Positions 14,534 to 64,000 of a DNA stretch of 64,000 bases are shown here, piece after piece; position 1 is the stretch's first letter; the number at the start of each line of letters is the position of its first letter. The position numbers and the translations under genes are program-made. The notes under the pieces are model-generated. The model was not told the DNA's origin. It saw only the letters and a program-made list of their open reading frames with translations, and did not search any database. The stretch covers positions 20,778-84,777 of IMG/VR virus record IMGVR_UViG_3300036806_000149. The stretch is one strand, 5' to 3'. The stretch comes from a virus.

Positions 14534-14909
14534 CCCAAACTCGCTCTACGGTTGCTTTAGCTATGAGCACGTCATCTCTATAGGCCCTCGTGTTCAGTGC
14601 GTCACAAATCAGCTTCAAGGCGTTGTCCACGTCCGGCTTGCGATTCCGAGGAACAGGATGCCGCAAACCCTCAGCAGATAGCTCCCCGTTCTTACGAAAG
14701 TGACCACGGGGGCGCACTACGACAATCCTAATCACAATCGCGAGCGCCGTGTCGTCTTGTAGACGCGGCTCACCAGCTTCCCTCCAAACTGCGCGAACCT
14801 CGTTCTCCGAGATGATATTGCTGGGCGGCGTGTAAGCGCGCTTGGTCCGGGGATCGAAGCGCTGACGCTGCTTAGTCTCGGCCTTCCCGGCGACTCGAAG
14901 CTCGATCAG
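14481..14909 (-). CDS. rusA: RusA family Holliday-junction resolvase (start non-canonical or uncertain)
   Basis: KPDVDNALKLICDALNTRAYRDD signature; frame open upstream of the track start (IELRVAGKAETKQRQRF...YTP). Confidence 0.85.
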   Translation of the reverse strand: MIELRVAGKAETKQRQRFDPRTKRAYTPPSNIISENEVRAVWREAGEPRLQDDTALAIVIRIVVVRPRGHFRKNGELSAEGLRHPVPRNRKPDVDNALKLICDALNTRAYRDDVLIAKATVERVWGEWPETTIRISSYGVST

Positions 14910-15038
14910 AGAATCAGGTTCCAGCTCCAGAGGATCAGCTTGAGCAGCAGATGCAGCACCGCCGGGCCGAGGGCGCAGATGACGAGAAACTCGATCGCGA
15001 GAATGAGGAATTTGGTTCCTCCGCTGGGCGGCGGCGGG

Positions 15039-16412
15039 TCACTTGCCACCGGATCGACGCAAGATTCCTGACGGCTTACCGCCCGAGCGTTGCCATTCGT
15101 CCATCCGCATTGATTCATGACGGGAGAGCTGCTCCAGGAGCTTGTAGTAGGAATCGCGCTCAGATCGATGCGCCGAAGCGAAGATCTCGTGCCGGCGCTG
15201 GCGCTTGCGCCACGTCTTGACGTTCTCATCCTGCTCGATCTCGGCCTCCAGGATCGTGACCTTCACGTCCTTGCCGTGCGAAGACCCCACCAGCAGCGCC
15301 CGCGCCATCTCGTCGGCGGCGAGCTTGCACAGCAGGGAGATCCGCTGATCGCGCGCCCAGCGATAGTCCACGTAGTAGGCAAAGCCGGCGAACGTGCTGT
15401 AGAGGCGTTGCAGCTCCTGGTCAGAGAGCTTGGTCCAGTCCCAGGGCAGCTCGGGGGCGGCGTCGGCGGGCGGCTCGGGAGTGTGCATCCGCTGGCCCGC
15501 AATCTCCTGCTCGACGTCGAGGACCAGCTTTTGATACTCGTCGTCGGAGGGCTCTACCGGCTCTTCAACAGACCGCTCTGGACCAGCTTGCGCCACCGAT
15601 TCGGTTTCATCGGCTGGTTCTTGTGATACCGCCTCAGCAGCTTCTCCTCGCTGCTCAGGTTCGGCATCGGGTGCTTCTGGCCCTTGATCGGCATCCGGTA
15701 CTTCCTCGCCGTCGCCCTCGCCTCCCTCAGCGCTCGGCGCTGGTTCGGGCTCGGCCGGCTCGGCGGCAGGTGCATCCGCTCCCGCTTGCGCTGACGGTGG
15801 CTCTTCTTGGGTCGCACCGGTCTCCTTGATCTGGTCGTGAACGTCCACCAGGCCGTTGAGGATCGTCTGGCGGTTGCGGTGCGTGGACTCATAGGCCCAG
15901 ACGTTTCGGAGCAGCTCGTACAGCTCGCTCAGGTCATAGTCGTCGAGCGCCGCGTTGACGCCCTCGATCACGCCCTGGACCTTCTCGCGGTTATAGCCCT
16001 CCCAGGGTTCGAGCTTGGACAGCTCCTGAAGATCATCGGCGCGGAACGCCTCGGGGGCGTGCTCGACGATGTTGCGAGCGTCCTGGATCTGCTCCTCGGG
16101 CGGAATCTTTTCGGGCTCGCTCGTGGTTTCGGGAGAACTCTGCTCCTCTGGCTCGCTCGATGACGCCGGTGAACTCGTGTCGGTTGACTCGCTGGACTCC
16201 GCCCCGTTGCCGTCCTCGAACTGGGCGGCCATCCGCAGAATCTTTTCCACCTCCGGCCCGCGCACCTGCTGCTCCCAGGCGTCGGTGGCCAGCTCGATCA
16301 GGGCGTTGGCCTCGGCGATCAGCTTGGCGTCCTCGTCGGGGATCGGGCCTTCGAAGCTCCCATCCTGCTTGCCCTGGACGATCAGCTCTCTGGCTTGACT
16401 GGGTTTCATCAC
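15039..16412 (-). CDS. Acidic hypothetical protein with coiled-coil C-terminus
   Basis: ORF track; AGGAG RBS before GTG/ATG at 16412/16409; an in-frame ATG at 16613 is also possible. Confidence 0.65.
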   Translation of the reverse strand: MMKPSQARELIVQGKQDGSFEGPIPDEDAKLIAEANALIELATDAWEQQVRGPEVEKILRMAAQFEDGNGAESSESTDTSSPASSSEPEEQSSPETTSEPEKIPPEEQIQDARNIVEHAPEAFRADDLQELSKLEPWEGYNREKVQGVIEGVNAALDDYDLSELYELLRNVWAYESTHRNRQTILNGLVDVHDQIKETGATQEEPPSAQAGADAPAAEPAEPEPAPSAEGGEGDGEEVPDADQGPEAPDAEPEQRGEAAEAVSQEPADETESVAQAGPERSVEEPVEPSDDEYQKLVLDVEQEIAGQRMHTPEPPADAAPELPWDWTKLSDQELQRLYSTFAGFAYYVDYRWARDQRISLLCKLAADEMARALLVGSSHGKDVKVTILEAEIEQDENVKTWRKRQRRHEIFASAHRSERDSYYKLLEQLSRHESMRMDEWQRSGGKPSGILRRSGGK

Positions 16413-16593
16413 TTGTCTCCTGTCACGACCCCAAATGAAATCTCCGATGAACTCCACGCCCGCCGCACCGGCCACGCGATACGCGCTCTCATCGGCCTCT
16501 CCCATGCAGATTGCTGAAAGTGCATCCTCTACCAGTACCTCTGGATCGCCATCTACACCGTAGCTAGAAGCAACTTCGCTGACCGCAACCTGC

Positions 16594-17646
16594 TCACGCG
16601 GCGAGAGAATCATCGGCGGTCGATGAGATCTTAGCATCCTCCTCCCACTCATCGAGCACGCGCTGACGAGCGGTCTGGTAGTCGTAATCCGGGCGCACCA
16701 GCTTGGCCCGCTCGATACCCACGGAATCCGCGAGCAGCGCCACGCCCTCCTTGAAATCGAGCTGGCACGTCTTCTTGTAGTCACAGAACTGACACGGCGG
16801 ATAGGACCACCGCCAGCCGAAGGGGTGACGCTTCGAAGGATTTTCTTCGGGCAAAACACCGTCGATGAAAAACTTCCGCCACTGCTTGAGCCGCTCGACT
16901 CCCATCTCGAAAAACTTCTCGTCGTAATCGACACGGAACTCGGCCGTGTTGGCCGGATTGTCCCGCGACATGTAGAAGATGATGCCGTGCGTGACTGGTT
17001 GGAGCCCCGGCCACAGCTCGTCTTGAAAATGACGCACGAGCGCGATCTGGACCTTGTTCTGCGAGATGTGAGCCGGATCGGGGCCTCTGAGACCGAGCTG
17101 CATCTTCTCGATGTCCTTGGACTCCTTGGTCTTGATCTCGACCGGGAGCGGCTTCTGCCAGTTGGGCGGCTGGATCACCGAATCGACGGAGGAGGTGAGC
17201 CAGGCGTCTGACCAGGTGAAGCCGGTCTGCACCGCCTCCTCGGGCGACGCCGACAGCAAGATGCCCGCTTCGTGCCACGTCCTGACCAGCTCCACCTCAG
17301 CGTCCTTGCCGGCCTGCATGACGACTCGCGACCGCCGCGAGAAGGGCTCGGCGCTGGGCAGATCCATCATCCGATACAGGGCCTGCCGGCTGCACGCCAT
17401 CGGGTTGTCGCCGGGGAACTGAGAGCCGTGGAAGGACACATGCCAAGCTCGCCCGTGGGGGGAGTCGTCGTCCTGGGAGCGCCAGCGCACGTCCTCGACC
17501 TGGCGATAGGCACTGCGCGTGATCGGGTCCACGGTGCGGATGATCTGGAGCCGGCTGAGAAGTTCCTGGCGCGTGAGCTTGCGCAGTCCGAGCGCCGAGC
17601 GCAGCTTCAGACCGGCCAGCGTGCCCTTGTCGTAGATGTACCTCAT
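16594..17646 (-). CDS. Cas4-like PD-(D/E)XK exonuclease with Fe-S cysteines
   Basis: C.RQ..Y; VD...VEIKT; Q; CQFCDYKKTC; lies in a recombination module next to RecA. Confidence 0.8.
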   Translation of the reverse strand: MRYIYDKGTLAGLKLRSALGLRKLTRQELLSRLQIIRTVDPITRSAYRQVEDVRWRSQDDDSPHGRAWHVSFHGSQFPGDNPMACSRQALYRMMDLPSAEPFSRRSRVVMQAGKDAEVELVRTWHEAGILLSASPEEAVQTGFTWSDAWLTSSVDSVIQPPNWQKPLPVEIKTKESKDIEKMQLGLRGPDPAHISQNKVQIALVRHFQDELWPGLQPVTHGIIFYMSRDNPANTAEFRVDYDEKFFEMGVERLKQWRKFFIDGVLPEENPSKRHPFGWRWSYPPCQFCDYKKTCQLDFKEGVALLADSVGIERAKLVRPDYDYQTARQRVLDEWEEDAKISSTADDSLAA

Positions 17647-28223: not shown

Positions 28224-30293
28224 ATGTCTGCTCGCATCTTTGCTCTACGTGAGCATAACTCTCTGTTTCTCCGCTCCGGTGGCCGATGTCAATCATGTGG
28301 ATCTGAGCTGATTCGTGGTTGGCACGCCGACCACGTAATCCCCTGGTCGGCTGGAGGAAGAACGGTACTTTCAAATGGGCAAGCGCTTTGCGCTGTCTGC
28401 AATCTTCAGAAGGGTAACTCGATGTCTTCGACCAAAACTCGTAATGCACCAGAACTTCGTCCATTTCGCGCACGTGACTTTCAGCGGCGGTTGGATGAGA
28501 CTGTCCACCAGCGTTGGGATGAACCAGACAAGAGGACGATCGCGTGGGTAGAGACCGGCAGCGGTAAAACCAAGGCGTGGATCGCCTTGGCTGATCATCT
28601 GATCATAAAGGGACTAATCGACTACGTTATGGTTTATACGCCTCGGTTGAACCTATGCGAACAGGCCGATCTCGACAGCCAGGAGTTCAAGCGCGAGCAC
28701 GGAGCAGCTTTTAGAGTGATTGGCCACAAGGCCAATAAAATGCCTCTGCGCTCCTCCGAGGAAGACGGCTTTATCTCAACCTTCCAGGCTGCGGTGATGG
28801 CGGAGAATACCGCCATTGCCAAAAGTGAAGAGAACATTCACGTCGTTCAAGCGCGAAAGGATCAGAGCCGCTTCTTGTTGGTCATCGACGAGGCGCAGTT
28901 CTGTGGCCTAGACAAAGATGGAGGTGGCACTAAAGCAGCACAAGTCATGCAGCGTTTGATGGAGCTTGCAGCTCATACGTTGATCATGACAGGCACACCT
29001 TACCGCGCTGATGGTCAGCGCGTGATCGGATGCGAGTACAGCATCAATCACGATAATCCCAAGTTCGAGCGGCTGATCTGGCACGTTCGCGCGACGCTCA
29101 AGGAAGGTCTAGCCAACGATTATCTCCGGCCACCTGAGTTCTACCTTCACCCCGGTCTTGCCAAGTGGGAGTCATCCGATGGATTGATCAAACGCAACAT
29201 CGACATCACCCAGGCTGAAGACAAGCTAAAGCCCATTCTGGCGAGTGAAGACGTGTTTAGCCCCCTTGTTGATGACACCATCGAGAAGTACCGCGAGCGC
29301 GTCAAGCTCGATCGACGTTATTGCGGCCTGATCACGTGCGGGACTCAGTCTCAGGCGCGGGCCGTTCTCCGGTATGCCAAGGCCAACTACCCAGATATCG
29401 ATTACGTCTGCGTGTTATCGGACCCGTCCGAAGATGATGGCGTTCACGCGGGGGCTCAAGCACACAGCATGTTGCGTGCTTTCCGGAAGCGGAAAGACGG
29501 TGGCATTCTCATCACAGTCCGTATGGTGTTTATCGGGTTTGACCATAAGCCGATTACAGTCATCTGTGTGTTGACGCACTACCGTCATGAAGGACACTTA
29601 CGTCAGATTCTTGGTCGCGGTCTGCGTATGTGGATCGCAAAAGAGGGTGAACTACCAGCACCACCTATCGACGAACAATGGTGTTTCATAATCGGTCCAG
29701 ATGATCCCAGATTCGCAAAGTTCGCCGAAAAGATTCGCAAGGAACGCGATGACGGACTTCACATCCGTAATACGCGCATTAGCAATGGAGGTAGTGGAAG
29801 TGGCACCATAGATGAGGGAGTCGTCACCGATGCGGACATGGGCGATCCGCGCGCAGCAAGCATCGATACTGACCTCGATGCTGACGACTTGAAGTTGATC
29901 GAGGACTTCCGACAAGAGCATAGTTTGCATACGCCTCCTACAGAGATCCGTAAAATCATCGACAATTTCTCAGACTGGAAGCGGAATCGAGGAGATACGT
30001 ATCAGTCTTCTCGCGAACACACCAATCATCGGACTCGCAAAGAGGATCTCGAAGCACAGCGAGCGACTTGTCAAGATTGGGCCAAGAAGATCGCCGGCTT
30101 GCGATTGAATCGTCAGCCTGGTCGGAACTGGTCGGAACTCATGCGTGAAATCATCGGCGAGGCTCACAACGGACCCTTCGGAGATCAGCTCGGGTTTATC
30201 AAGAATGGAGATCTCTCCACGATGGAGGATCTCAAGACTCGCGAGGATACTTTGAGGAAGATGTATTCCAATGAGCGCAAATCACAACATTAG
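28224..30293 (+). CDS. HNH endonuclease fused to an SF2 (ResIII-like) helicase/ATPase
   Basis: CQSC...HADHVIPWSAGG...N...LCAVCN..KGN; ETGSGKT; DEAQ; MTGTPYRAD; QILGRGLR. Confidence 0.85.
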   Translation: MSARIFALREHNSLFLRSGGRCQSCGSELIRGWHADHVIPWSAGGRTVLSNGQALCAVCNLQKGNSMSSTKTRNAPELRPFRARDFQRRLDETVHQRWDEPDKRTIAWVETGSGKTKAWIALADHLIIKGLIDYVMVYTPRLNLCEQADLDSQEFKREHGAAFRVIGHKANKMPLRSSEEDGFISTFQAAVMAENTAIAKSEENIHVVQARKDQSRFLLVIDEAQFCGLDKDGGGTKAAQVMQRLMELAAHTLIMTGTPYRADGQRVIGCEYSINHDNPKFERLIWHVRATLKEGLANDYLRPPEFYLHPGLAKWESSDGLIKRNIDITQAEDKLKPILASEDVFSPLVDDTIEKYRERVKLDRRYCGLITCGTQSQARAVLRYAKANYPDIDYVCVLSDPSEDDGVHAGAQAHSMLRAFRKRKDGGILITVRMVFIGFDHKPITVICVLTHYRHEGHLRQILGRGLRMWIAKEGELPAPPIDEQWCFIIGPDDPRFAKFAEKIRKERDDGLHIRNTRISNGGSGSGTIDEGVVTDADMGDPRAASIDTDLDADDLKLIEDFRQEHSLHTPPTEIRKIIDNFSDWKRNRGDTYQSSREHTNHRTRKEDLEAQRATCQDWAKKIAGLRLNRQPGRNWSELMREIIGEAHNGPFGDQLGFIKNGDLSTMEDLKTREDTLRKMYSNERKSQH

Positions 30294-39650: not shown

Positions 39651-42600
39651 CTATGTGCTCGGTACTCGCGAAGCAAACGCGATTCGATTGGCTAGATACG
39701 TGTAGTCGGTCTCCGGACCAGACTCATGCACGGTGATGTGGTTGGTGATTCCGCCGGGGCTCTGACCGCGCGCCGGATTGACCACGAACTCGCCTGCCTC
39801 CAGGTTGAAGATCCCGCTCTTGCGCACGAAGCCGCCGGTCTGCATCGAGGGGATCTGGTACTGGGGCAGCAGTCCGCCGGCACCGGTGAACACGGCCATC
39901 CGATACCACTGCCAGGCCGTCGAGGAGAAGCTCTGGGCCTTGCCCAGGTTGCCGTTTAGCTCGTTGATCTGGCTGGTGTTGGACTCGATCGCGTTCTGAG
40001 AATCGATCAGAGCCTGGATGAGCGACTCAAACTGGCCCTTCTGAGCCTGAGTCATCCCAGCTTCGATCCGGTCGAAGTTCAGCCCGGAGACCGTGCGGGC
40101 GAAGCCCAATCCGCTGAGACCCGTCAGGTTGACGCCGTAGCCTCCGAGGAGCTGCTGAGCGAGCCCGGAAGCCTGCTGCTGGAGCGCAGCGGCGTTCTGA
40201 GCCAGGAACTGGAGCTGTTGCTGGGAGGTATCAGTGGTGAGGTTGGTGGCGATCGTCTGGGCGAGCTGGCCGAGCCCGCCGAAGATGCCCGTCTGGAACT
40301 GGGCGCGGCTCTGAATCAGGTCGATCGAGGATTGCCGGATGGCCACGATCTGATCGGAGATCGCCGCCGTGTTCTCGGCGATCTGGACCCCGAGATCGGC
40401 GATTTGATCGTGGAGGGCTTCCATCTGGCCGGTGTTCTTCTGGAGCGTGGCCGTCTGAAGTGCCCGTGCGAGGGCGTCGCGCTGTTGGACGAGACTGGCT
40501 CCGGTACCGCGCAGCACCGCCAGCCGCGTCTGCCCGGCCGCTACCGCGCCGCCCGCTCGCTCCTGAAGGTCAGCGATGCGGTTGAACAGGTCCAGCCCAG
40601 TCTGCCGGCGCTGTGCGCGCTGGTTGATCTGATCGACGGTGTTCTGGAGCTGCTGGGCCTGGGTCTCGACGATCGTGGCGACGGTGTCCTGGAGCTGGGT
40701 GTTGAGGTCATCGACGGTCTGCTGCCAGCGGGGATCGTGCTTGGCCTTGGCCTGGGCCTCCTTGAGCTTTCGCTCGATGACTTTGCGCCGGGCCTTGAGA
40801 TCTTCGAGCTGCCCGGTGGTGGCGGCGTTGATCAAATCGGTGCGCCCCAGCGCCTGTCCGATGCGGCTGACCGTGTCAGGCGACAGCGCCTTGCCGATCA
40901 TGTTCGTCGCCACTTTGCCGAGAACCCCAGCGACCTTGCCCCGAATATTGCTGGGGAACCGCACGTTGATGTCGGCTTGGCGAAGCTGGGCGTTCAGTTG
41001 ATCGGTGAACTTCGTCTGAGTCTTCTCGAAGCGGTCCTGACGGGCGGCGGCGATCTTTGCGTCGGTGTCATCCATGTCTTGCAACAGCTTGTTGCGCGCG
41101 GCCAGCAACCGTTCGTAGATCTTCTTCTCATCCGAGGTGATCCCGCCCTTGCGTAACCCAGCCAGTTGCCGGTTGGTGGCGATCAAGTCGGTGCGCAGAC
41201 GGTTTCGCTCTTTACCCAACTCGTTGATCAGCACGTTGGTGTCTCGGATGTCCTGAGTGATGTCCTGGATCTCGGTGAGCGGCCGGCGTCTCACCAGACG
41301 GGTAGCGTCTCTGGCTCCTCGGGGGCCTCTGCGCTCTCTCAATCCGGTCTGGGCCAACTGCAACCGGGTCTGAAGCTGGGTGGTGCGCTCGTCGATGACC
41401 TGAGCTAGCCGCGCGAAGTAGCCGTCGTCACCGGTCAGCGTCTCGATCCCCTTGGTGAACCGCTCGACCTGAGTGATTGCGTTCTCGGTCTTGGTCGCGT
41501 TGCGATCGAAGCCCTGGCCGATGAATTTGAACGCCGTATTGACGCGACGGATCAGTCTGAGGGTGGCATTGACGCCCCCGGGCACGATCTGACCCACCAG
41601 ATCAACGTTGACACTGAGCATCGCGTCGAGCAGATCCTCATGCTGCTTTTGCAGTTCGTCGTAGCGCTTCTTCTCGTCCTTGGTATCGAGACCAGTTCTG
41701 GCGAGCGCTCGTAGTTGCCGCTCAAGCCCTCTCAGTGCAACAGATACGCGATGAGTGCTGGCAATCGAGATGTTGAAATCGACCGACTTGACGAATCTTT
41801 CTAGAGCGTCATGTAGCTCTTTCTCGCCCTCTTTGACCCCGCCCTTTTCGAGCTTCTTGATCTCGTCTTCGAAAGATTTCTGAATGCCAAACAGAGACAG
41901 GATCGGAATCCGACCGAGTCCCTTTATGTCCGCTTCTACCTCGCGCAGCGAGATCTCGCCCCCGCCAGCGAAGCTCGTCGGCCCGCCGGTGAACCCCAGC
42001 GCGCCCTTCAAGCGATTGCGAGATGTCCCGATCCAGTTGGCAACCTTCTGCTGCTGGGTCTGGTTGAGCACCCACTCACGAGCGTGGGCCAGGATCGGGA
42101 TGGGCTGGCCCGCGCTCCCAGGGATCTCTCCGCCCACGGCGTACTCACCACCGGAAGGTGTCGGAGGCTTATCGCCGACCCAACCGCCCTGAGCGTATCC
42201 GGCCCGGAACGCCGTTGCTGCTCCGCCGCGACGCACGTCCTCGCGCGGGACCCCGGGGCGCTCGAACGTGTTCATGAAGTAGGACGCGGCGTCGCCCGGG
42301 TCCTTCATGGCGTTCATCGTGCCCTTCAGGCTCGGATAGTCCCGAGCCAGAATTGAGACGAGAAATGCGGTCTGTACGCCGGGATCATTCCAAGGTTTTT
42401 TCATTCGGGCAGCGAACGCCCGCACGTCAGACAGCGCCACCGGGTGCGCGGTGAAGCCCCACAGACCGCCGTTATCGGTGCCGGGCTCCATCGCCGATGG
42501 ATTCAGCCCCGATTCGGCGTAAGCGTTGCCGATGATCCCCGCCGCTGCGATCTTGTTGTACCCGGCTCTGGTCAATACCTGGAAGATCTGGTGACCGGTC

Positions 42601-45600
42601 GGCCCGCTTAGATTCCCGATCCCAACCGTTCCATCAGTAGACGTGCCAGCTTTATCCTCACCATATTTGTTGGCAGCTTCGGTGACCTTCTTGATCGCTG
42701 CCTCAGCCAGATCCTTGAGTGCGCCAGTGCCATGGACCACGAGATCCTTGATCTTGTCCCAGGTGGCGACGCTAATGGCACCACCGAATTGTCCTCCACC
42801 AGTTAGCTTTCCGTGCGCAAGACCGAAGATGAAGTTGGTGAAATCCTTTCCGGCTGCCGTCTGCTCCCCCTCGGTGTATCCAGTCGTTGCCGAGGCGAGT
42901 GTCGTACCGCGAGCGTCCGCTGCCCATCCCATTTCGAGAAATGCGAACTGGTTATGACCTTGAGCAAATACCTCGCCAGCCTTGAGCTTTGCACCAGCGC
43001 TCAAACCTGTCTTCGGCGTAACGTTCTCGGCGAGATAGATATATTTGCCTTTGAACGGTCCGCTTTCTAGCCGATAGACGATCATCGCACCCACTCCGTC
43101 ACCAGCGGAGTGAAGAGGCCAACCAGTATGGCTACCCGGTGGATCGACACGAGTGAAGGTTGCATCGCCGACGACTGCAATCGGACCCTGACCAGTCATG
43201 TCGAGACCCATATCCGTACGGCCTCTGCCGAATCCCGATCCGAATGGGTAGACATAGCCACCGGCTGCATAACGAGGGCGATAACCACCCTCTACATGCG
43301 TCGGTTGACCATTCCTGCCATGTTCGCCTCGGACTCGGTGAAACATTTCATCGAGACCAAACCCATAAACCTCGCGAAGCGCGGGATCGACGTATCGTTG
43401 ATGTGCCCAATTCAGAACCGCTTCACCGCGACCAACCAGAATGTTGACCGCGTCCCGGCCGCGCTCGCCCGCGCGACCGACAAACCCGCCGCCTGCCTTC
43501 CCTGCGAAGCCTCCCTGAGCCAAACCAGGGGGCTTATCGACACTGATGTCCACTGGCTTAGCGTTGAATGTCTTCAGGCCCTTGTTGGTGGCCTGAGCGA
43601 CATAGTTTATGCCTTTCCACACAGCGTTGTCGAGATTCTGGAAGGAACCCTTGACGCTATTGAACAACTGATTGGCGGCGTTCTTAGCCGCATCGCGTGT
43701 CCAGTACATCTGGAACGAGACATGCTTGGCGAGTTGATCTGTGATCTTGTTCGCCGAGTCGCGCATGTCGTCGAATGAATTGGTGACTGCTTTGGACATT
43801 GCTCGAATGGCCGAGCGAATGCCAGTGGTCATGTCGTGAACCACGTTCTGCACGCGGTGTTGACCGGCGTTGGTTATGTTGCTGATCGCCTGCCACATAT
43901 CACCCCACAAGTTGGTGAAGATCGAGACGAACCGTTTGATCTCCTTGGTGATGGAGCTGAAGTCGATGTTGGACGCGCCGACGACTGACGCCCCCGCCGC
44001 GCCTCCGCCCTGGAACCGCCCGCCGCGAGACTGAGTGCCGCCGCCCAGTGCGCGCCGGAAGGCAAAGATCACGTCGTGCCCGCCGGCCGCTTGGACCTCC
44101 TCCTTGGTGAGCACGTGCTCGCCCTCTTCGAGCAGCGCGGGAATCCGGTCGCCGCCGCCGTAGCCCTTGCCGATCGGGCCACCTTCCTGGATGAGGCTGA
44201 AGATCTTGGTGACGATCCCCGCGCCCGGGATGCTCTTGGCCGCGTCCTTGATCGTGTCCCAGGCCAGCTTGGGCAGCTTCTTGATCCCCTGGACGACCGT
44301 GTTCATGGCCGTATCGAGGAGATCTCCCAGCTTGCCGGGCAGCTTGGTGGTGATCCACTTGAAGATGTCGCCGAAAGCCCCGGTGATCTTGTCGAAGAGC
44401 TTTCCGCCCAGTCCTCCGAGACCGCTCAGCAGCCCACTGATGATGTGCAGACCCCAGGGGATGAAGTGATCGGGTCTGAGGAAGTTTGCGGCGACCGCAA
44501 GCGCGCGCGCAATGACGCCCCCGAATCGATCCGCCAGACCCTTCAGACCGTTCAGCAGTCCACTGATGATGTGCAGTCCCCAAGGAATGAAGTGGACTGG
44601 GTTGAAGAATTTCAGGACTGCGACAATCACATGCGCAATGAGGTTCTCGAAGCGGTTTTGCAGGTTTGCCAAGCCTCTGAAGAAACCATTGATGATGTGT
44701 AGCCCCCAAGGTATGAAGTGCAGGGGGTTCATGAACTTCGCGATAGCAGTTACGACACTCACGAAGATATGGAGTGCTTTGCCCGGAAGGTCACCAAGGA
44801 TGGCCAGGAAACCCTTGATGCCAGCGGTTGCTATCTGTGCCAGTCCACCAAAAACTTTCTTGACACCGTTCCAGATCTTGCCGAAGTTCAGGGTCAGTAT
44901 CCCGGTGAGGATCTCAACGATTCCGCCGAGGACCTTGAACGCCCCGCCGAGAACGTTGCCGATGTATGTCGCAGCACCCTTGATCGCCCTGATGAAGATG
45001 CCGGTGAAGAACGTCACGATCGGCCGTACGATGACCATGACGCCTTTTCCCTTCTCGAAGGCGCTGAACAGATCTTTGACCTGATTGATCAGGTTTCGGA
45101 ACGGCGGACCTGCGACCTTGATGATGTCGTGGAAGCCGTCACTCAGCGCCTTGAGCACCGGCTTTAGGTTCCCCGTCACCGCGAGCAAGCCGACGATTGC
45201 GCCCGTCGCTGCTAGCACTGCTGCCACCGGAATCGCCGCTGCTGCCAACCCCGCTGCCCCCGCGCCCTCAGCTCCGACAGCCGCCGCGCCCTCAGCTCCA
45301 GCGGCGGCTGCGCCCTCAGCTCCAGCGGCGGCTCCACCTGCCGCCTTGGCTGCCTGGGCCGTCTCGGCCGCATCCTTGGCCTTCTTCATCTCACGGTACT
45401 TGCCAATAATTTTGTCCAAGCCGGTGGCGAGAGGTGACAACGGAGCCACCAACAGTCCTGCTGCCTTGCTGGCAATCCCTATTGCTAGCGAGATACCTAT
45501 GAAATCTTTGGCGAGTCCGGCAAGTTGCGGATGTTTGTCAATGAACTTTCCGATTTGGGTAACCATTCCGCCGACTTGCCGAATGAATTGCCCTATTGCC

Positions 45601-48494
45601 GGGATAACGATCGTGGCCAGGATCGAGGCGAAAGCTTTTACAGAGTCAACGCCTTTCTCCGAGAATGTCTTACCCAACTCGGTGCCGATCGCGACTATCA
45701 CTGGCTTGAGCGCACTCAGCACCTCGCCGGTGATTCGGAAGAGCTGATGGAAGAACTGAGCCGCCTTGCCGCCTCGGTTGATCGAGTCGGCGAGCTTGTT
45801 GATCGGCTCAGTGGCCCCCTTGATGAGGTCGATCCCGGTCCGGGCTCCGCCACCCGGTCCGGCGATGGCCAGGAACAGCTTGGCGATCGCGCCACCCAAA
45901 CGCAGGAATGCCAGCAGCGCGTCGGTACCCTCATGGAAGAACTGCCTGAGCGGATTCTTGTCGCCCTTCTGCTTGTTGGCGTCACCAGTGAATTTCAACC
46001 AGCTCGTCGTGACCTGATCGAAAAATTTCAGGAGACGACTGAGCGAGGGAGCCGCCGCCCGCCCGATGTCCAGAAAGATCTTGCCCAGGTTGATGAGGAT
46101 GTCGGTCAGTGGCCGCAGGTTCTTCTGAGCCTCACGAATGAACTCAAAGAAGATGTTGATCGACTTCTTGTCAGTGAAGGCATTGAAAAAGCGCAGCCCC
46201 TGCTTGGCCATCTCTCCGGCCAGATCCTGCATCGCCTTTTTGACGTCGGGTCGTTGCAAGATCTGAATGACCTGGTTCATCGCCGTGCCGAAGGCGTTGA
46301 TCAGTGGCTCAGTAATCGTCTGTGAGGCAACCCGGAAGACGTCCTGGAAGCGCTTGACGATGTCCAGCAGCCTCCGCTCAGCGCCCGAGAGCCGGCCGGT
46401 CAGGAAGTCGAGTTTGCCGCCGGCAGCGGTGATCTTGCTGCCCGCCAGATCGGCTTGCTGAGCGGCCTGGTTAGCCGCAATCCCCGCTTGGGTGATCCCG
46501 CGACGCGCTTGCTCAGCCGCGCGCTGGGCTCGGGTCACGGCTCGTTCGGCGTCGCCCACTCCGCGCTTGGCCTGATCGAGCTGCTGCTGGGCCGAGACGA
46601 CGCCGGGGGCACCCGCGATACCTTGACGCTGAGACGCCGCCAGATCGCTCGACGTGCGTGAGACCTGCTGATGGGCTCGGGCCGCCTGGAGGTTGGACTC
46701 CTGGACCTGAAGCTGAGCGCCGGCGACGTCGCCACCGGTGGAGATCGCGTGGGCCAGCGCGGCTCGCGCATCCTTCTGGGCCAGCGCCGCGCTCTTGGCC
46801 TGTAGCTCGGCCTCCTTCTCGGTCAGGATCATGTCCTGGAGATCGCGCCGGGCCTGCTGGCGAGACTTGGAAAGATTCTGCTCGGCCGTGTTTACGCCCT
46901 GATGGGCCTTGGTCAGATTCTCTTCGGCGGTTCTGACCCCGTCGGTGGCGTTGGACAACGAGTTCTGAGAATTCTTGAGCGTGTTGACCGCTCGCCCGTG
47001 CGCCGTCGTCGCCCCGGCGGCTCTGGTATGAGCCGCTGCCCCCCGATAGCTCGCTTGTTGATCGACTAACTGTGCCTGTTTGGCCGCGCCGAACACGGCG
47101 GTGAGCCGCGACACGAGCATCGCGAACACGCCCAGGACGGGGAGTGCCTGAGCGATTCCGGCGATGAACGTCCCCCCGAGGGCTCCACCGGCATAGAGCG
47201 CCGCCGAGCCCAGCGCCACCAGGGCTCCACCGGCGGCCCCGGCGACCGTGATCAACGGCTGGAGGAAGCCCACGATCGCGAATGTGGCCAGCCCTCGTAG
47301 CACGTTGTCGAACCCGGCGATGTTCTGCTCGGCGTTCTGGAGGCTGCTCGTGATCGTGCTGATACCACTGCTAATCGCCGAGCCCATGCCGCCGCCGCTG
47401 TTGGAGACCGATCGCTCCGCTACCTCCAAAGCTCCCAGACTCGCTATAGCCCTGCCCGTGTCAGCTTCGATGTTGATGTGACGTGTTCTGGTCGCCACAT
47501 CCATAATCCCTCTGAACTCAGCGAGATGTGCTTCAGCCCCCGCAGTGTTGAGGTCGATATCAAACTTCTTGTCACGGAAGCGATTTAGCTCAGCTTCCAG
47601 CACTTTCGCCTGCACAAGCGCATGCTTGAGATCCAGCTCAACACGCATTTTCTCGACGCCACCGAGTTTCTCGTTCTTCAGCTTCTGCTTCATTTCGGTG
47701 ACACGTTGGACGTCGCGCTCGTACTGCCGCAACGCTTGCGCTCCACGTCGGAGATCGTTGATCTCCTGATCTGCACGTCTCGCACTCTGACGAGCCGAAT
47801 CGGATTCAGCCGCTTGTTCGCGTTTGATGTCAGCTAATGTTTCGCGAGCACGCTGGGCATTTCGCTTGGCGAGGTTTTCGCGAATCCGATCGACGGTGCT
47901 GGCGTTCTGTTGCGATCGCTTGGCGGCTCGCTCATCTTCATCCGCCACTTCCTGTATCGATCGCTTGCGCCGCTGGTTGAGTGCAATCGCCTCATTGGCA
48001 TTACGTGTGCTTGCCGCGTGACGAGTAGCCGATGAAATGAGGTACTTCTTCTCTTCATCGTCGAGATCCTTGATGTCTTTGATCTGATCTCTCAACGCCT
48101 TAGACAGACGCTTCTGTGCAGATTCGGCCGCCTTCTCGGCAATCGCCTGTTGGGCCAATGAGTGAGTACGGCGATCCTGCGCATCGACCGCCGTCTTGGT
48201 CGTACGCTCGACATCGCTATAGGCCCGAGCGAGATCCTTGGTGAGCTTGATGTTCTCGGCCAGCTCGGGCCGAGTCTTGGCGAATGATCCGCGCAGATCA
48301 TCGAAGGTGACCTTCTGGCGCTCGACCCCGCTGCCCAAGCTCCGGTAGGACTCTTCGAGATTCTTGTTCTCGCGCTCCAGATCCTTGGCCATCTCCTTCT
48401 GGAGGCCCATCGCGGCCGTCACCGAGGCGAAGGCCGCCGCCGTCTCGTCGCGGGCCTTCAGAATTATTTCAATGACGTTACGTTCATCGGCCAC
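39651..48494 (-). CDS. Tape measure protein with embedded M23-like and phage-lysozyme-like domains
   Basis: 2947 aa, coiled-coil and Ala/Gly-rich; follows the chaperone genes; AAAGIIGNAYAESGLNP...FERPG; RTDMGLDM; three HFIPWGLHII repeats. Confidence 0.92.
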   Translation of the reverse strand: MADERNVIEIILKARDETAAAFASVTAAMGLQKEMAKDLERENKNLEESYRSLGSGVERQKVTFDDLRGSFAKTRPELAENIKLTKDLARAYSDVERTTKTAVDAQDRRTHSLAQQAIAEKAAESAQKRLSKALRDQIKDIKDLDDEEKKYLISSATRHAASTRNANEAIALNQRRKRSIQEVADEDERAAKRSQQNASTVDRIRENLAKRNAQRARETLADIKREQAAESDSARQSARRADQEINDLRRGAQALRQYERDVQRVTEMKQKLKNEKLGGVEKMRVELDLKHALVQAKVLEAELNRFRDKKFDIDLNTAGAEAHLAEFRGIMDVATRTRHINIEADTGRAIASLGALEVAERSVSNSGGGMGSAISSGISTITSSLQNAEQNIAGFDNVLRGLATFAIVGFLQPLITVAGAAGGALVALGSAALYAGGALGGTFIAGIAQALPVLGVFAMLVSRLTAVFGAAKQAQLVDQQASYRGAAAHTRAAGATTAHGRAVNTLKNSQNSLSNATDGVRTAEENLTKAHQGVNTAEQNLSKSRQQARRDLQDMILTEKEAELQAKSAALAQKDARAALAHAISTGGDVAGAQLQVQESNLQAARAHQQVSRTSSDLAASQRQGIAGAPGVVSAQQQLDQAKRGVGDAERAVTRAQRAAEQARRGITQAGIAANQAAQQADLAGSKITAAGGKLDFLTGRLSGAERRLLDIVKRFQDVFRVASQTITEPLINAFGTAMNQVIQILQRPDVKKAMQDLAGEMAKQGLRFFNAFTDKKSINIFFEFIREAQKNLRPLTDILINLGKIFLDIGRAAAPSLSRLLKFFDQVTTSWLKFTGDANKQKGDKNPLRQFFHEGTDALLAFLRLGGAIAKLFLAIAGPGGGARTGIDLIKGATEPINKLADSINRGGKAAQFFHQLFRITGEVLSALKPVIVAIGTELGKTFSEKGVDSVKAFASILATIVIPAIGQFIRQVGGMVTQIGKFIDKHPQLAGLAKDFIGISLAIGIASKAAGLLVAPLSPLATGLDKIIGKYREMKKAKDAAETAQAAKAAGGAAAGAEGAAAAGAEGAAAVGAEGAGAAGLAAAAIPVAAVLAATGAIVGLLAVTGNLKPVLKALSDGFHDIIKVAGPPFRNLINQVKDLFSAFEKGKGVMVIVRPIVTFFTGIFIRAIKGAATYIGNVLGGAFKVLGGIVEILTGILTLNFGKIWNGVKKVFGGLAQIATAGIKGFLAILGDLPGKALHIFVSVVTAIAKFMNPLHFIPWGLHIINGFFRGLANLQNRFENLIAHVIVAVLKFFNPVHFIPWGLHIISGLLNGLKGLADRFGGVIARALAVAANFLRPDHFIPWGLHIISGLLSGLGGLGGKLFDKITGAFGDIFKWITTKLPGKLGDLLDTAMNTVVQGIKKLPKLAWDTIKDAAKSIPGAGIVTKIFSLIQEGGPIGKGYGGGDRIPALLEEGEHVLTKEEVQAAGGHDVIFAFRRALGGGTQSRGGRFQGGGAAGASVVGASNIDFSSITKEIKRFVSIFTNLWGDMWQAISNITNAGQHRVQNVVHDMTTGIRSAIRAMSKAVTNSFDDMRDSANKITDQLAKHVSFQMYWTRDAAKNAANQLFNSVKGSFQNLDNAVWKGINYVAQATNKGLKTFNAKPVDISVDKPPGLAQGGFAGKAGGGFVGRAGERGRDAVNILVGRGEAVLNWAHQRYVDPALREVYGFGLDEMFHRVRGEHGRNGQPTHVEGGYRPRYAAGGYVYPFGSGFGRGRTDMGLDMTGQGPIAVVGDATFTRVDPPGSHTGWPLHSAGDGVGAMIVYRLESGPFKGKYIYLAENVTPKTGLSAGAKLKAGEVFAQGHNQFAFLEMGWAADARGTTLASATTGYTEGEQTAAGKDFTNFIFGLAHGKLTGGGQFGGAISVATWDKIKDLVVHGTGALKDLAEAAIKKVTEAANKYGEDKAGTSTDGTVGIGNLSGPTGHQIFQVLTRAGYNKIAAAGIIGNAYAESGLNPSAMEPGTDNGGLWGFTAHPVALSDVRAFAARMKKPWNDPGVQTAFLVSILARDYPSLKGTMNAMKDPGDAASYFMNTFERPGVPREDVRRGGAATAFRAGYAQGGWVGDKPPTPSGGEYAVGGEIPGSAGQPIPILAHAREWVLNQTQQQKVANWIGTSRNRLKGALGFTGGPTSFAGGGEISLREVEADIKGLGRIPILSLFGIQKSFEDEIKKLEKGGVKEGEKELHDALERFVKSVDFNISIASTHRVSVALRGLERQLRALARTGLDTKDEKKRYDELQKQHEDLLDAMLSVNVDLVGQIVPGGVNATLRLIRRVNTAFKFIGQGFDRNATKTENAITQVERFTKGIETLTGDDGYFARLAQVIDERTTQLQTRLQLAQTGLRERRGPRGARDATRLVRRRPLTEIQDITQDIRDTNVLINELGKERNRLRTDLIATNRQLAGLRKGGITSDEKKIYERLLAARNKLLQDMDDTDAKIAAARQDRFEKTQTKFTDQLNAQLRQADINVRFPSNIRGKVAGVLGKVATNMIGKALSPDTVSRIGQALGRTDLINAATTGQLEDLKARRKVIERKLKEAQAKAKHDPRWQQTVDDLNTQLQDTVATIVETQAQQLQNTVDQINQRAQRRQTGLDLFNRIADLQERAGGAVAAGQTRLAVLRGTGASLVQQRDALARALQTATLQKNTGQMEALHDQIADLGVQIAENTAAISDQIVAIRQSSIDLIQSRAQFQTGIFGGLGQLAQTIATNLTTDTSQQQLQFLAQNAAALQQQASGLAQQLLGGYGVNLTGLSGLGFARTVSGLNFDRIEAGMTQAQKGQFESLIQALIDSQNAIESNTSQINELNGNLGKAQSFSSTAWQWYRMAVFTGAGGLLPQYQIPSMQTGGFVRKSGIFNLEAGEFVVNPARGQSPGGITNHITVHESGPETDYTYLANRIAFASRVPST

Positions 48495-60057: not shown

Positions 60058-62493
60058 TCAGGCGATTTTGCGAGTCTTCACGATCATCGGCTTGTCTTCC
60101 GGTCCCACCCAGTGCGGTGAGATCCAAATCTTTCTACAGCCGTGAGGGCAAGTCAGCTCGCCGGTCTTGACGTCGATGCGTACGCAGGATTTGACCTTGT
60201 CCGGATCGAGACCAGTGTCGTTGCAGCGCGGACAGACCAGATCTTTGGCGATCTTGCCGTTGCAGACGATGCAAGCGACGAACGAGCCCCTCGTGTAGTG
60301 GTTGTAGTGGCCGATGCGCTCGAACTGATGCGAGAAGTCACGCGGCTGACCGTTGCCGTTGGTGGCGTGGTTATAGGTCCGCCGGCTGGGCCGATCGACC
60401 CGGACCACCAGGGGGATCTTCCAGCCTCGCTTCTCCTGGCGCTTGCGGTCGCGCCGGCCCAGCTCGCGCGGAACCATCTCCACGTTGGCGGCTTCGAGCA
60501 GGTACAGCGCCCCGATCACGCGCTCGACGGCGATCCGAATGATCCGCTCGTATTCCAGGACGACGTCTGGATGCTTTTTGAGTACGTCCGAGTTGGCCAC
60601 CAGCGTCATCGCCGGCTTGGTGAAGCGCTCGGTGGCTCCCAGCACATAGGCGAACTCGTAGTTGACGACGTCCGACTTGTTGACCGCGTAGGTGCCGAGC
60701 GCGATCGCCATAAGCGAGGCGTGAGGATTGCCGTAGTAGAAGATCGGCGTGATGAACAGGACGTTCGGATCGGGATCGGAGTTGATCATCGCGCCGAGCA
60801 GTTTGACCTCCCCCTCATCGGACAGCCGACTCTCAATCGCGGGCAGGCTCTGATCGCCGGTGAAATCGATGAACAGCGGATCGAAGGCCAGCGGCGTCTC
60901 CTGGGCGAAGAGGAGCTGCTCGGTCTCAGAAAGATTCGGGAGCGCCTTGACCTGGGCCGAGTCCATCACCAGCACGTGAGCGAGATACATGGAGTGGCCG
61001 AGGTGGAGATGCAGGTAGGTGAGCTGGTCGGTGCGGTCGATGCCGAGCTGTTTGGCCGAGTGCGCCCGCTGACGAACCTGTTCCATGGTCTTGGCGAAGC
61101 CCTTGGCCGAGGCCCACACCGGCGGCGGCTTGCGCAGCAGCTCCATGAACGCGCCCTCAAAGCGCCCGAAGTCCACCATCGACTTGAAGAAGGCCATGGC
61201 CGGCGAGATCTCCTCGATCGGGATCTCGATCCCCATATCGCCGAGCAACCGATGAGCGGCCTGGAGACGACCATCGGCGGTCGCCAGATCGAGCCCTTCG
61301 AAGATCATGGGGAGCGGCAGGTCGCCGGCGCGCGTATCGCGCTGCCACTCCCACTCGCCATCCTCGCGCTCCCGGCCCCACAGCCAATGCAGATCTGACT
61401 GGAGGATGCTGTGCAAATGCTGCTCGACGCGGGCGGGCTCCATGTCGATGCTGTCGGCCACTTCCCTGGTCGTCCGCGCCCGGTCAGAGATGATGGCGTT
61501 GTGGAGCGCCATCGTCGTGAACACGCTCTGCGCGGCAGCCAGCGGACGCTTGGCCTCGGCGAGAGCGCTCTTCAGTTGCTCCGGATCTGAGCCACCGTAG
61601 GAGCGCCAGTTCTGCATCCACTCCGGATCGGTCTCCTGAGCGATGTCGAGCCGGTGAGCGATATCGCGCAGGGTGCGCTTCTGCATGTTCGGGTTGCGCG
61701 CGTCCATGATCTCGATCATCTTCATCACCTGATCGCCGGTCGAGATCGAGAGCGCCAGCATGCCCTCGCCCGAGCCCACGTGGTGGGCATACTCGCCACC
61801 GCCCTCGGGCATCGGATGCGTTCCGCCCTCCCACTCGCCGACGCGAACCAGCAGCCAGCCCATGGTGCCGGCCACGAGCAGCGCATCGCGATCGACGGGA
61901 TACTCGAAGCAGATCACGCCACGCGAGCCGGTGATGACGCGCTCGCCGCTGGGATCTTTCTCGTTCTCGACGACCTCCAGGACGATCTTGGCCTTGGGAC
62001 CGTGATCGACCAGCGTCCAGCGCGACCAGTTGTCGCGCTCGCTGAGATCCTGCGAGCGAGTGGCGATCTCCATGCCGTACTCGCTCTTCTCATCAATCTC
62101 CACGTAGCCGGCGAGCTGACGATCGAGATCGACGCCCTCGTCACCCTGGTTGGTGAGCACCGTGACCCCCGACGCGAGCGCGGGGATCGATTCGAGCAGC
62201 AACGCAGCGGCCATCTCGTTATCCATGCGGCGATCGAGAGGGTTCTCGATGACCGTGTACTGGCCCAGAGCACAGTCGTCGGCGTGCTCGACGAGCAGCG
62301 GCAGCACGATGCCCTTCTCAAAAGCGTCCAGGAAGACCTGATCTTCGGGGTCCCAGAAGGTGCCGTCAGCGGCGCGAGTGGAGATCTCGATCTTCGCCGG
62401 CTGACACGTGCATCCCTGCTCGCGAAGATGCCTCATCGCGATGCGATGGGCTTTTGAGCCAGGTTTCAACTCCATCTTGTCTTCGGGGTTCAT
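60058..62493 (-). CDS. Large hypothetical protein (811 aa)
   Basis: ORF track; C-terminal RIGH...CIVC...CPRC...WISPHWVGP. Confidence 0.75.
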   Translation of the reverse strand: MNPEDKMELKPGSKAHRIAMRHLREQGCTCQPAKIEISTRAADGTFWDPEDQVFLDAFEKGIVLPLLVEHADDCALGQYTVIENPLDRRMDNEMAAALLLESIPALASGVTVLTNQGDEGVDLDRQLAGYVEIDEKSEYGMEIATRSQDLSERDNWSRWTLVDHGPKAKIVLEVVENEKDPSGERVITGSRGVICFEYPVDRDALLVAGTMGWLLVRVGEWEGGTHPMPEGGGEYAHHVGSGEGMLALSISTGDQVMKMIEIMDARNPNMQKRTLRDIAHRLDIAQETDPEWMQNWRSYGGSDPEQLKSALAEAKRPLAAAQSVFTTMALHNAIISDRARTTREVADSIDMEPARVEQHLHSILQSDLHWLWGREREDGEWEWQRDTRAGDLPLPMIFEGLDLATADGRLQAAHRLLGDMGIEIPIEEISPAMAFFKSMVDFGRFEGAFMELLRKPPPVWASAKGFAKTMEQVRQRAHSAKQLGIDRTDQLTYLHLHLGHSMYLAHVLVMDSAQVKALPNLSETEQLLFAQETPLAFDPLFIDFTGDQSLPAIESRLSDEGEVKLLGAMINSDPDPNVLFITPIFYYGNPHASLMAIALGTYAVNKSDVVNYEFAYVLGATERFTKPAMTLVANSDVLKKHPDVVLEYERIIRIAVERVIGALYLLEAANVEMVPRELGRRDRKRQEKRGWKIPLVVRVDRPSRRTYNHATNGNGQPRDFSHQFERIGHYNHYTRGSFVACIVCNGKIAKDLVCPRCNDTGLDPDKVKSCVRIDVKTGELTCPHGCRKIWISPHWVGPEDKPMIVKTRKIA

Positions 62494-62553
62494 AACTAAT
62501 ATCTTACCATCGGTGTCAAACGGACTCGAACTTCGGGTAACAACTTCTGAGTA

Positions 62554-63030
62554 TTAGCCGAAGGTTGGTGAGTGACTTATGTGGTCGTCGCCGAGACGTT
62601 CCATCTCAGCGTCGCTGCCGCCGGCGTTCTCCGAGACGATCACGCCGCCCTCATCGTCCTGACTGATCCGGCTACCGCTGACGATCGTGGGCTGGGCCTC
62701 GGGGTCCAGCTCGGGCTCGGGCTCTTCCTCGGTCTGCGCCTTCTCGGTGAAAGGATTGCGCCGAGGGGCCGTGGTCGTCTGTTCGTCGCGAGTCATCGTG
62801 ACGGACGCGCTGTCGCCGTAGACCTCGTGGACCAGTGCCATCACGTCCTCGCGGCGAGCCTCGTTGCGCCGGTCGATCGCGGTGCGGAGATTGACAAGCT
62901 GATCGTCGTAGTCGCCTCTGAGGATCGCGTTGATGATCGCGTCGATCCGGGGCCGATGAGCTTTTCGCGACTTGGCCGGCGGCGTGGGTGTAGCAGGTTT
63001 GGTTGTAGCAGATTTCTTGCTATTCGGCAT
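62554..63030 (-). CDS. Hypothetical protein
   Basis: ORF track; GGGAG RBS. Confidence 0.65.
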   Translation of the reverse strand: MPNSKKSATTKPATPTPPAKSRKAHRPRIDAIINAILRGDYDDQLVNLRTAIDRRNEARREDVMALVHEVYGDSASVTMTRDEQTTTAPRRNPFTEKAQTEEEPEPELDPEAQPTIVSGSRISQDDEGGVIVSENAGGSDAEMERLGDDHISHSPTFG

Positions 63031-63223
63031 CTACAGACTCCCTCGGAGATGGACATTCTACTGGAGGGTCAAACTCGATCCGGACCTTCAGCTCGTGAGT
63101 ACCGTAGCCCTCGATTGCCACTGAGCGCTCCAGCGATTCGATCGTGGCTCGATCGTGAGGCACCGTCTCTGAGTGAGCCTCGACGTCGTCTATGAAGAAG
63201 CGCATCGTGATCAATCCAGACAT
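63020..63223 (-). CDS. Small hypothetical protein immediately downstream of the array
   Basis: ORF track. Confidence 0.45.
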   Translation of the reverse strand: MSGLITMRFFIDDVEAHSETVPHDRATIESLERSVAIEGYGTHELKVRIEFDPPVECPSPRESVDAE

Positions 63224-63243
63224 CGCTCAGGAACTCATGAGAA

Positions 63244-63574
63244 TTCTCGCTCAGGTCCATTGGGTAGCTCCCATAACGATGGCTCGCTCACGTAGGGCGG
63301 GTAACTCATACTTCACGGCTCGCTTCGATCATCGGGTAACTAAGACCATACGGCTCGCACATGCACGACGGATAGCACAAGGATGACGGCTCGCTGGTGG
63401 CAGGCGGGAATCTTCCGGGTTCGGGCTCGCTCTAGCTGCTTGGGTAACTCATCTGGAACGGCTCGCACAAACAACCCCGGGCACTTCGCTATTCACGACT
63501 CGCTCAGGCCGTCTCGGGTAATTTCTGCTACACGGCTCGCTCATCGAGGGCGGGTAATTCGTGTACTACGGCTT
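63244..63574 (-). ncRNA. TIGR-like tandem interspaced guide RNA array, 9 units of 35-37 nt
   Basis: Alternating repeats WGCGAGCCG and AGTTACCCG separated by unique 8-10 nt segments; plus-strand unit starts at 63244, 63281, 63317, 63352, 63388, 63424, 63460, 63497, 63534, 63570. Confidence 0.88.
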
Positions 63575-64000
63575 GGGCATCGGGATCGGAGAACCCTCGA
63601 TGTCCACGTGGCCGAGGTGCTCCTTGACGTAGGGATTGGGCGGCTCGGTCCCGTAGTGCAGCCACCAGGCGGCCTCGAAGTAGTGGGCCAGGAATCTTTT
63701 CACCGCGTACCGGCGAGCCCGCATGTCCAGCCGGCCATCGGGAAGGTGCCCGCTCAGGTAGGTGTTGCGCGTCTCCTTGTCGCGGATGTCCTTCTCCGAC
63801 AGCGTCTTGGCGGCGGCCTCGGCGTTGCCCCCGACGTACCAGTTGCCGGCGATCTCCACGGCCTTGACGTTGACGTGGTCGATCTCGTACCAGCCCTCCT
63901 GGGGGACCTGCTCGACGCGCTGCTCGCGCTGTATCTCGAAATGTTTCCGTTCCCGGTAGAGGTGGCCGTAGTAGCAGCTCTCCCGGCCCGACTGCTTGAC
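63566..64000 (-). CDS. Nop-domain RNA-guided protein (Tas/IS110-related), C-terminal 144 aa; 5' end outside the window
   Basis: Frame open to the window edge: VKQSGRESCYYGHLYRERK...GHLPDGRLDMRARRYAVKRFLAHYFE.W...EPPNPY..HLGH, a Nop/IS110-type C-terminus, abutting the array. Confidence 0.8.
   Translation of the reverse strand, partial: VKQSGRESCYYGHLYRERKHFEIQREQRVEQVPQEGWYEIDHVNVKAVEIAGNWYVGGNAEAAAKTLSEKDIRDKETRNTYLSGHLPDGRLDMRARRYAVKRFLAHYFEAAWWLHYGTEPPNPYVKEHLGHVDIEGSPIPMPKP

Follow-up and report, generated by a model that had tools for sequence, protein, structure and literature searches.

Could a gene that runs off the end of an uncultured phage contig, together with the short alternating repeats that follow it, form an RNA-guided system, and would its effector cut the DNA that it recognizes or only bind it? 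TIGR-Tas systems were described in 2025. In the founding paper, a TIGR array is defined by two alternating repeats of 8–12 nt, spacers of ~9 nt, and a unit of ~36 nt (PMC12045711). Just such a repeated stretch lies close to the end of the DNA analyzed here (hereafter, the window), which comprises the last 64 kb of one 84,777-bp virus record and whose end is also the end of the contig.

The carrier is an uncultured tailed soil phage. Phage-type genes of the record include those for a tape measure protein, a major head protein, a portal, and a DnaE-like polymerase, and replication and recombination are represented by a DnaB helicase, a primase, and a UvsX-like recombinase. The GC content of the record is 62.2%, and no tRNA genes were found in it. 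When the protein fragment encoded at the contig end was compared by tblastn with cultured phage records, no match was obtained; the major head protein gave one weak match to a Bacillus phage, and the polymerase was at most 33.5% identical to its cultured counterparts. As judged from these three comparisons, the phage appears to have no close cultured relative. Two other features of the record may be mentioned here. The tape measure gene (39651-48494, minus strand) is very long; its product of 2,947 aa implies a tail of unusual length for a phage of 85 kb or more. Separately, the ORF at 28224-30293 (plus strand) encodes a helicase-family protein whose N-terminal segment (residues 13-66) resembles an HNH endonuclease, so that the two seem to be fused.

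The locus at the contig end consists of the following elements, and tas, the array, and the next three ORFs all lie on the minus strand:

63566..64000, minus strand: 3' part of the tas gene, i.e., its last 144 codons with the stop at 63566-63568, encoding the C-terminal half of the Nop domain
63246..63577, minus strand: dual-repeat TIGR array of nine units, located by coordinate parse and pattern scan
63577, 63541, 63504, 63467, 63431, 63395, 63359, 63324, 63288, minus strand: starts of the nine array units
63020..63223, minus strand: next gene in the ORF list, 67 aa, starting 22 nt past the array

The array begins within the last three codons of tas, on the same strand. Its first edge repeat is truncated at the 5' end and overlaps the final codons of the gene (CCC AAG CCG TAG), and its closing edge repeat is truncated at the 3' end (AGCGAG, 63251-63246). 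The eight full edge repeats differ from AGCGAGCCG by 0–1 mismatch and the nine loop repeats from AGTTACCCG by 0–3 mismatches, the general forms being (G)WGCGAGCCG and (G)AGTTACCCG, respectively. Both repeat types thus read (G)AG...CCG and have in common a box D-like start and a box C-like end. Successive units measure 36, 37, 37, 36, 36, 36, 35, 36, and 37 nt, and parsing of the array gives spacers of 8–10 nt separated by edge and loop repeats of 9–10 nt. The published dual-repeat anatomy is therefore present in all its parts: alternating repeats, a 36-nt period, truncated outer edge repeats, and direct contact with the gene.

An earlier, first-pass annotation had listed nine units with their paired A and B segments, periods of 35–37 nt, and an array placed directly behind a gene ending in AAG CCG TAG. 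All nine pairs were reproduced by the minus-strand read and the coordinate parse, the parse returned the same range of periods, and the ORF at 63566-64000 indeed stops at that point. The edge and loop repeats of that annotation were recovered as well, but its 9-nt boundaries are open to refinement. Six of the nine A segments and seven of the nine B segments end in G, and related arrays typically have 10-nt GAG...CCN repeats with 8-nt spacers, so that a 9/9/9/9 split is probably one base off and a division of 10/8/10/8 is likelier.

Could an array of this kind arise by chance? The edge-plus-loop pattern, with at most one mismatch allowed, was searched in the 64-kb window and in 100 shuffles of it. 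The window contained 11 matches, seven of them inside the array, while the shuffles had a mean of 1.76 and a maximum of 6, and none of the 100 reached 11. The array was missed by Tandem Repeats Finder, which is expected because half of each unit varies. Similarly, the array RNA folded no better than shuffled sequences (z +1.70), as is expected for dual-repeat units, and it matched no Rfam family.

The protein was then considered through its homologues. Its reading frame is open at the window end, and the contig stops before the 5' part of the gene is reached. The visible fragment is identical to residues 160-303 of its nearest homologue, P0001, at 129 of 144 positions (89.6%) without gaps, and P0001 is complete at 303 aa. 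A search for longer proteins gave 48 homologues above 252 aa, of which 45 measure 266–368 aa and three 443–453 aa. A family profile was built from 37 of them, leaving out P0012, P0015, P0028, P0034, P0036, P0040, P0042, and P0045-P0048. Against the PDB, this profile matched the TasR entry 9MTY, which is the TaTasR structure of the founding paper (PMC12045711), with an E value of 5.3e-28 and TasH with 3.7e-18. The fragment alone matched 9MTY with an E value of only 0.22 and no Pfam family, but all 14 of the family-invariant residues in the part that it covers are kept. Furthermore, when an AlphaFold2 model of P0001 (pLDDT 94.0, pTM 0.89) was compared with the PDB by Foldseek, the ten top-ranking matches were all TasH or TasR chains (E 3.6e-9 to 4.0e-7). 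These results indicate that the fragment belongs, by the family profile and by the modeled fold of its full-length homologue, to the Tas family. The first-pass annotation had called the gene product a Nop-domain protein, and the profile and structure comparisons agree, the Nop fold being present in the family.

Side by side with this, the same Nop domain contains an insertion of ~30 residues in the phage (63838-63927; fragment residues 25-54, P0001 187-216), which is modeled in P0001 as short beta strands. It is found in the phage's fragment and in 8 of the 37 homologues, most of the others having three residues at this place.

The gene might instead belong to an insertion sequence of the IS110 family, or to a remnant of one, with the repeats being unrelated tandem DNA. 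Some labels point that way: the closest homologue is listed in one source as an IS116/IS110/IS902 transposase, the fragment matches phrog_4285 (E 1.6e-6), which is labelled transposase, PF02371 was found in 32 of the 37 profile members, and the profile matches the IS621 recombinase at 1.4e-5. However, the Tas structures match far better than IS621 does, both by profile (5.3e-28) and by Foldseek (3.6e-9 against 4.0e-3), and among the Foldseek matches, the IS110-family recombinases come only after the Tas chains, at 2.8e-3 and weaker. The names themselves are an old annotation of Tas proteins, and even the 9MTY entry carries an IS110-style name. In addition, no DEDD catalytic domain was detected in the 37 members, in which Pfam returned only PF02371 and one stray ST7. 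The related loci described below, with an array beside nearly every gene, weigh in the same direction, and we regard an insertion sequence as extremely unlikely.

Is the pairing of gene and array a property of this contig only? We examined 441 candidate stretches of IMG/VR contigs; 420 of them proved to code for relatives, and 80 loci were kept. Phased arrays of ~36 nt, recognized as at least four copies of one 6-mer beside the gene with spacings of 33–40 nt or double that distance, accompany it in 78 of the 80 viral loci, L010 and L079 having none. A stricter test, which demands consecutive spacings of 35–37 nt, was passed by 74 of the 80 (L001, L010, L023, L045, L055, and L079 failed). The pairing of the gene with the array is thus conserved in related phages. 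The edge core GAGCGAGCC is common to many of these arrays, and among them, edge and loop repeats covary in their final base: the ends are CCA/CCA in L029, L033, and L050, CCG/CCG in L074 and L078, and CCC/CCC in L065, L068, and L069. The phage's own array has CCG/CCG. The founding paper gives it as a rule for the symmetric dimer that the edge and loop ends change together (PMC12045711). The closest locus found in metagenome contigs was a single truncated match, whose array was not usable.

Does the phage protein carry a nuclease? Two types of effector are known to cut, TasR with a RuvC domain and TasH with an HNH domain, and the unseen beginning of the gene could in principle hold either domain, in which case the targets would be cut. 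The first-pass annotation had noted that the window does not reveal the nuclease class, and this is right, as the ORF runs off the contig end before the N-terminus. Three of the 48 homologues (443–453 aa) are also long enough to hold an added domain. On the other hand, the complete P0001 has no room for one at 303 aa, 45 of the 48 homologues measure 266–368 aa, and the three long ones are the most distant matches of all (E 2e-12 to 7e-10). Pfam detected no nuclease domain in the 37 profile members, nor in seven of the 11 homologues that the profile excludes, each of these seven longer than 340 aa; in total, no Pfam nuclease family was found in the 44 homologues scanned. A nuclease as effector is consequently improbable.

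The alignments are consistent with this outcome. TasR residue 122 pairs with profile position 37, and TasH residue 88 with position 46. The homologues have ~36 residues ahead of the Nop/coiled-coil core, and the P0001 model starts with coiled-coil helices. The homologue family is, by its predicted domain content, TasA, and the phage's own protein is most likely a nuclease-free TasA as well, judging from homologues that reach 90% identity over the visible half. Joining the two contig ends in a circle was also tried as a source of the N-terminus and was rejected: the extension is in frame but looks antisense. As an observation apart from these, a public run (X1) contains a contig of 20,130 nt that covers the window end (64000) with its positions 14446-15946 and extends for another 4,184 nt beyond the point at which tas breaks off, so that the N-terminus lacking here exists in public data.

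The fragment also appears to contain the residues that would process the array. They correspond to the following codons, in fragment numbering:

63629..63631, minus strand: Tyr124 codon, aligning with SpTasH Y289 in the profile alignment
63608..63610, minus strand: His131 codon, aligning with SpTasH H296 in the profile alignment

Both sit in the motif P-Y-V-x-E-x-L-G-H, on the Y and the last H. His131 is invariant (37/37 homologues), and the Tyr124 column holds Y in 25 homologues, W in 11, and F in one. In SpTasH, Y289 and H296 are reported to carry out a metal-independent cleavage of the pre-tigRNA, and their loop, which is C-terminal, is kept in dual-repeat systems and absent from stem-loop systems according to the same sources (PMC13421893; preprint 10.64898/2026.09.09.750476). 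By alignment, the Tyr/His pre-tigRNA processing pair is present in the phage's fragment.

Every defining feature of a dual-repeat TIGR-Tas system that lends itself to testing was found at this locus except a terminator, which is not obligatory. The array anatomy, the family profile, and the fold of the homologues all back the identification as TIGR-Tas made in the first-pass annotation. Taken together, the locus very probably provides this uncultured tailed soil phage with a dual-repeat TIGR-Tas system, most likely one of the nuclease-free TasA type. It is a fresh example of a published system, and nothing in it is new in kind. Two peptides searched for in three supplementary files of the founding paper (PMC12045711) were absent from them. 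A published catalogue of tas loci, as presented in a preprint, holds 20,096 loci and 6,685 arrays, with TasA the commonest effector and phages the commonest carriers (preprint 10.64898/2026.09.09.750476).

How does the locus compare with the systems that have been characterized? The nearest are the dual-repeat TIGR-TasA systems, such as FpTIGR of Flavonifractor plautii and MbTasA (PMC12045711; 10.64898/2026.09.09.750476), which likewise have a Nop protein alone (in the phage, by its homologues), the same 36-nt array adjoining the gene with truncated outer edge repeats and box-like ends, the same Y/H pair, and the same kind of carrier, a phage. The phage locus differs from these in four respects: its array has no detected terminator and leads straight into further genes; its loop variant GAGTTNNCC is not a consensus in any of the 74 related arrays (of 80 loci); its insertion of ~30 residues recurs in only a minority of the homologues; and two units of its repeats recur within another gene at a distance of 47 kb.

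SpTIGR-TasH of the Salicola phage CGphi29 (PDB 9W03, 9W04, 21KL; PMC13421893) gave the best structural matches and is also phage-borne with a dual-repeat array; it has 8-nt spacers and 16 nt of specificity, which probably applies to the phage locus too. TasH, however, has an N-terminal HNH domain of ~85 residues and cuts DNA, and the phage's homologue family has no counterpart of this domain. TaTIGR-TasR of a Thermoproteota archaeon (PDB 9MTY) is the best profile match and has the same Nop core and coiled-coil dimer by fold, but it carries an N-terminal RuvC domain of ~120 residues, after which the phage's homologues start, and its repeats read UG...CCA with 9-nt spacers, in contrast to GAG...CCG in the phage. 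More remote are the bridge-RNA recombinases of the IS110 family (IS621, PDB 8WT6; ISCro4, 9T56), which have the PF02371 RNA-binding domain in common with the homologues and match them distantly by profile and fold. They differ in the DEDD domain, not seen in the homologues, and in using one bridge RNA rather than an array of short guides; furthermore, no transposon ends flank the gene in the related loci examined.

How might the phage locus work? By analogy with the characterized systems, tas and the array would be transcribed together, and the transcript would probably run on into the next genes. A TasA dimer would then bind each unit through its GAG (box D-like) and CCG (box C-like) ends, and the Tyr124/His131 loop would cut within the edge repeats to release about nine tigRNAs of 36 nt. 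Being free of a nuclease, TasA would block transcription or replication at the target instead of cutting it. For FpTasA and MbTasA, RNA-guided binding and repression without cleavage have been demonstrated, as reported in a preprint (10.64898/2026.09.09.750476), and the phage TasA locus would work as these two do.

The surroundings of the array bear on the first of these steps. No rho-independent terminator was found in 62400-64000, and the fold of 63150-63260 contained no hairpin followed by a T run, which suggests that the array lies within a longer transcript. The 67-aa next gene, which matched no Pfam or PHROG family above threshold, is probably on the same transcript. In the founding paper, a predicted rho-independent terminator after the array is described as typical but not obligatory (PMC12045711).

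Could the locus nevertheless be decayed or orphaned, a relic that is neither expressed nor processed and has no present function? No promoter consensus was found in 62400-64000 and, as noted, no terminator; several repeats are degenerate, with up to three mismatches in the loop repeats; and no target was found in the phage contig (see below). Against decay, the frame is intact over 144 codons, in which the 14 invariant residues and the Y/H pair have all been kept, and the box-like ends of the repeats have been retained.

The second occurrence of this DNA is also relevant. The stretch is present in two soil-metagenome runs from different studies, one of which may be the source of this DNA, and no RNA run was listed for it. 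In the run from the second soil sample (X2), a contig of 225 nt with a depth of 4.8 matches 63281-63468, i.e., units 4-8, with one difference in 188 nt, and then goes on for 37 letters that differ from the window where unit 9 (63252-63288) would be. On the array strand, these letters read as a spacer, a GAG...CCA loop-like repeat, and a spacer, so a different unit takes the place of unit 9. The same run does not cover 63469-63775 and 62602-62652, gaps from which we conclude nothing. This single contig of low depth is only a hint that the two samples differ at the far end of the array, where units may be gained or lost. How arrays change is an open question in the field, on which the difference at unit 9 bears. 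An array that is changing in this manner suggests one that is maintained, and with the conserved residues and repeat ends, it makes decay of the locus very unlikely.

What would such a system target? The contig of 84.8 kb is large enough to test the idea that TasA regulates the phage itself. We searched it for 18-19-mers made of both spacer halves in both orders and found no site with up to 3 mismatches (30 shuffles gave 0–4); at 4 mismatches, there were six matches, one of which is the array itself. Similarly, 16-mers with gaps of 0–2, including the guides of the intragenic mini-array described below, gave no site with up to 1 mismatch (20 shuffles, 0–1) and four matches at 2 mismatches, for which 20 shuffles gave 1–7. 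The first-pass annotation had proposed looking for paired A and B sites in both orders, and in the 84.8 kb of phage DNA, this search returned nothing beyond what shuffled spacers give. The outcome is thus negative, and self-regulation through the nine guides is not supported for the phage DNA available.

With no target detected in the phage's 84.8 kb, the guides are likely directed at host genes or at competing mobile elements. The first-pass annotation had suggested that they might act against other mobile elements or in gene regulation. According to the literature, the natural targets of tigRNAs are generally unknown, and the short spacers lead to many false matches (e.g., 10.64898/2026.09.09.750476). 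An exact 18-mer is expected ~17 times by chance in 596 billion bases on both strands, so a match on that scale would carry no weight.

Are the units beside tas the only ones in the phage? A scan of the whole contig located a second site:

16113..16194, minus strand: two-unit TIGR-like mini-array, edge-8-loop-8-edge-8-loop-8-edge with a 36-nt period, from the whole-contig scan

When position weights were derived from the main array (edge, loop, and next edge), its two units scored 28.7 and 30.5 bits, within the range of the main-array units (27.3–45.5), and the best other site on either strand of the contig reached 11.4. The mini-array lies 47 kb from tas, in frame and in the sense direction, within a Ser/Glu/Pro/Thr-rich linker of the ORF at 15039-16934, which is upstream of the terminase-portal block and has no family match. 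Its spacer parts do not resemble one another, and no repeat was called at this site by Tandem Repeats Finder. Furthermore, its loop repeats begin with GAGTT like the loop consensus of this phage, a beginning found in none of the 74 related-array consensuses.

Could the peptide alone account for these units? When the mini-array peptide was recoded synonymously with the codon usage of the phage, 10 of 3000 versions scored as high. Several observations weigh against a functional mini-array. In L082, the linker of a homologue of the gene contains just one edge-like motif, which encodes Glu-Ser-Glu-Pro, and lacks the unit structure, so that the peptide by itself can give rise to the motif. A strict edge-pair pattern gave 66 matches in five related records; 65 of them are adjacent to tas, and the remaining one has no loop motif; in two complete relatives, 27/27 and 50/52 of the high-scoring units lie beside tas. 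A search for tas in the records of two relatives of the mini-array gene, L082 and L083, gave no match, these records being fragments that are only 22% and 7% complete. The link of the mini-array to the TIGR-Tas system is one that we infer. That it serves as a working intragenic source of guides, in which TasA would cut the mRNA at the edge repeats, release two more tigRNAs, and tie the gene product to TasA, is a tentative idea that we think has perhaps one chance in a few of being correct.

If that idea were true, it would extend to an unrelated gene the case of tigRNAs encoded inside the tas reading frame, in disordered regions, which a preprint describes (10.64898/2026.09.09.750476). Since a unit of 36 nt equals 12 codons, units could then spread into disordered linkers with the frame left intact. 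An in-frame mini-array that is distant from tas and carries the phage's private loop variant would in this way give a hint on two questions that are open in the field, the natural targets of tigRNAs and the way in which their arrays change.
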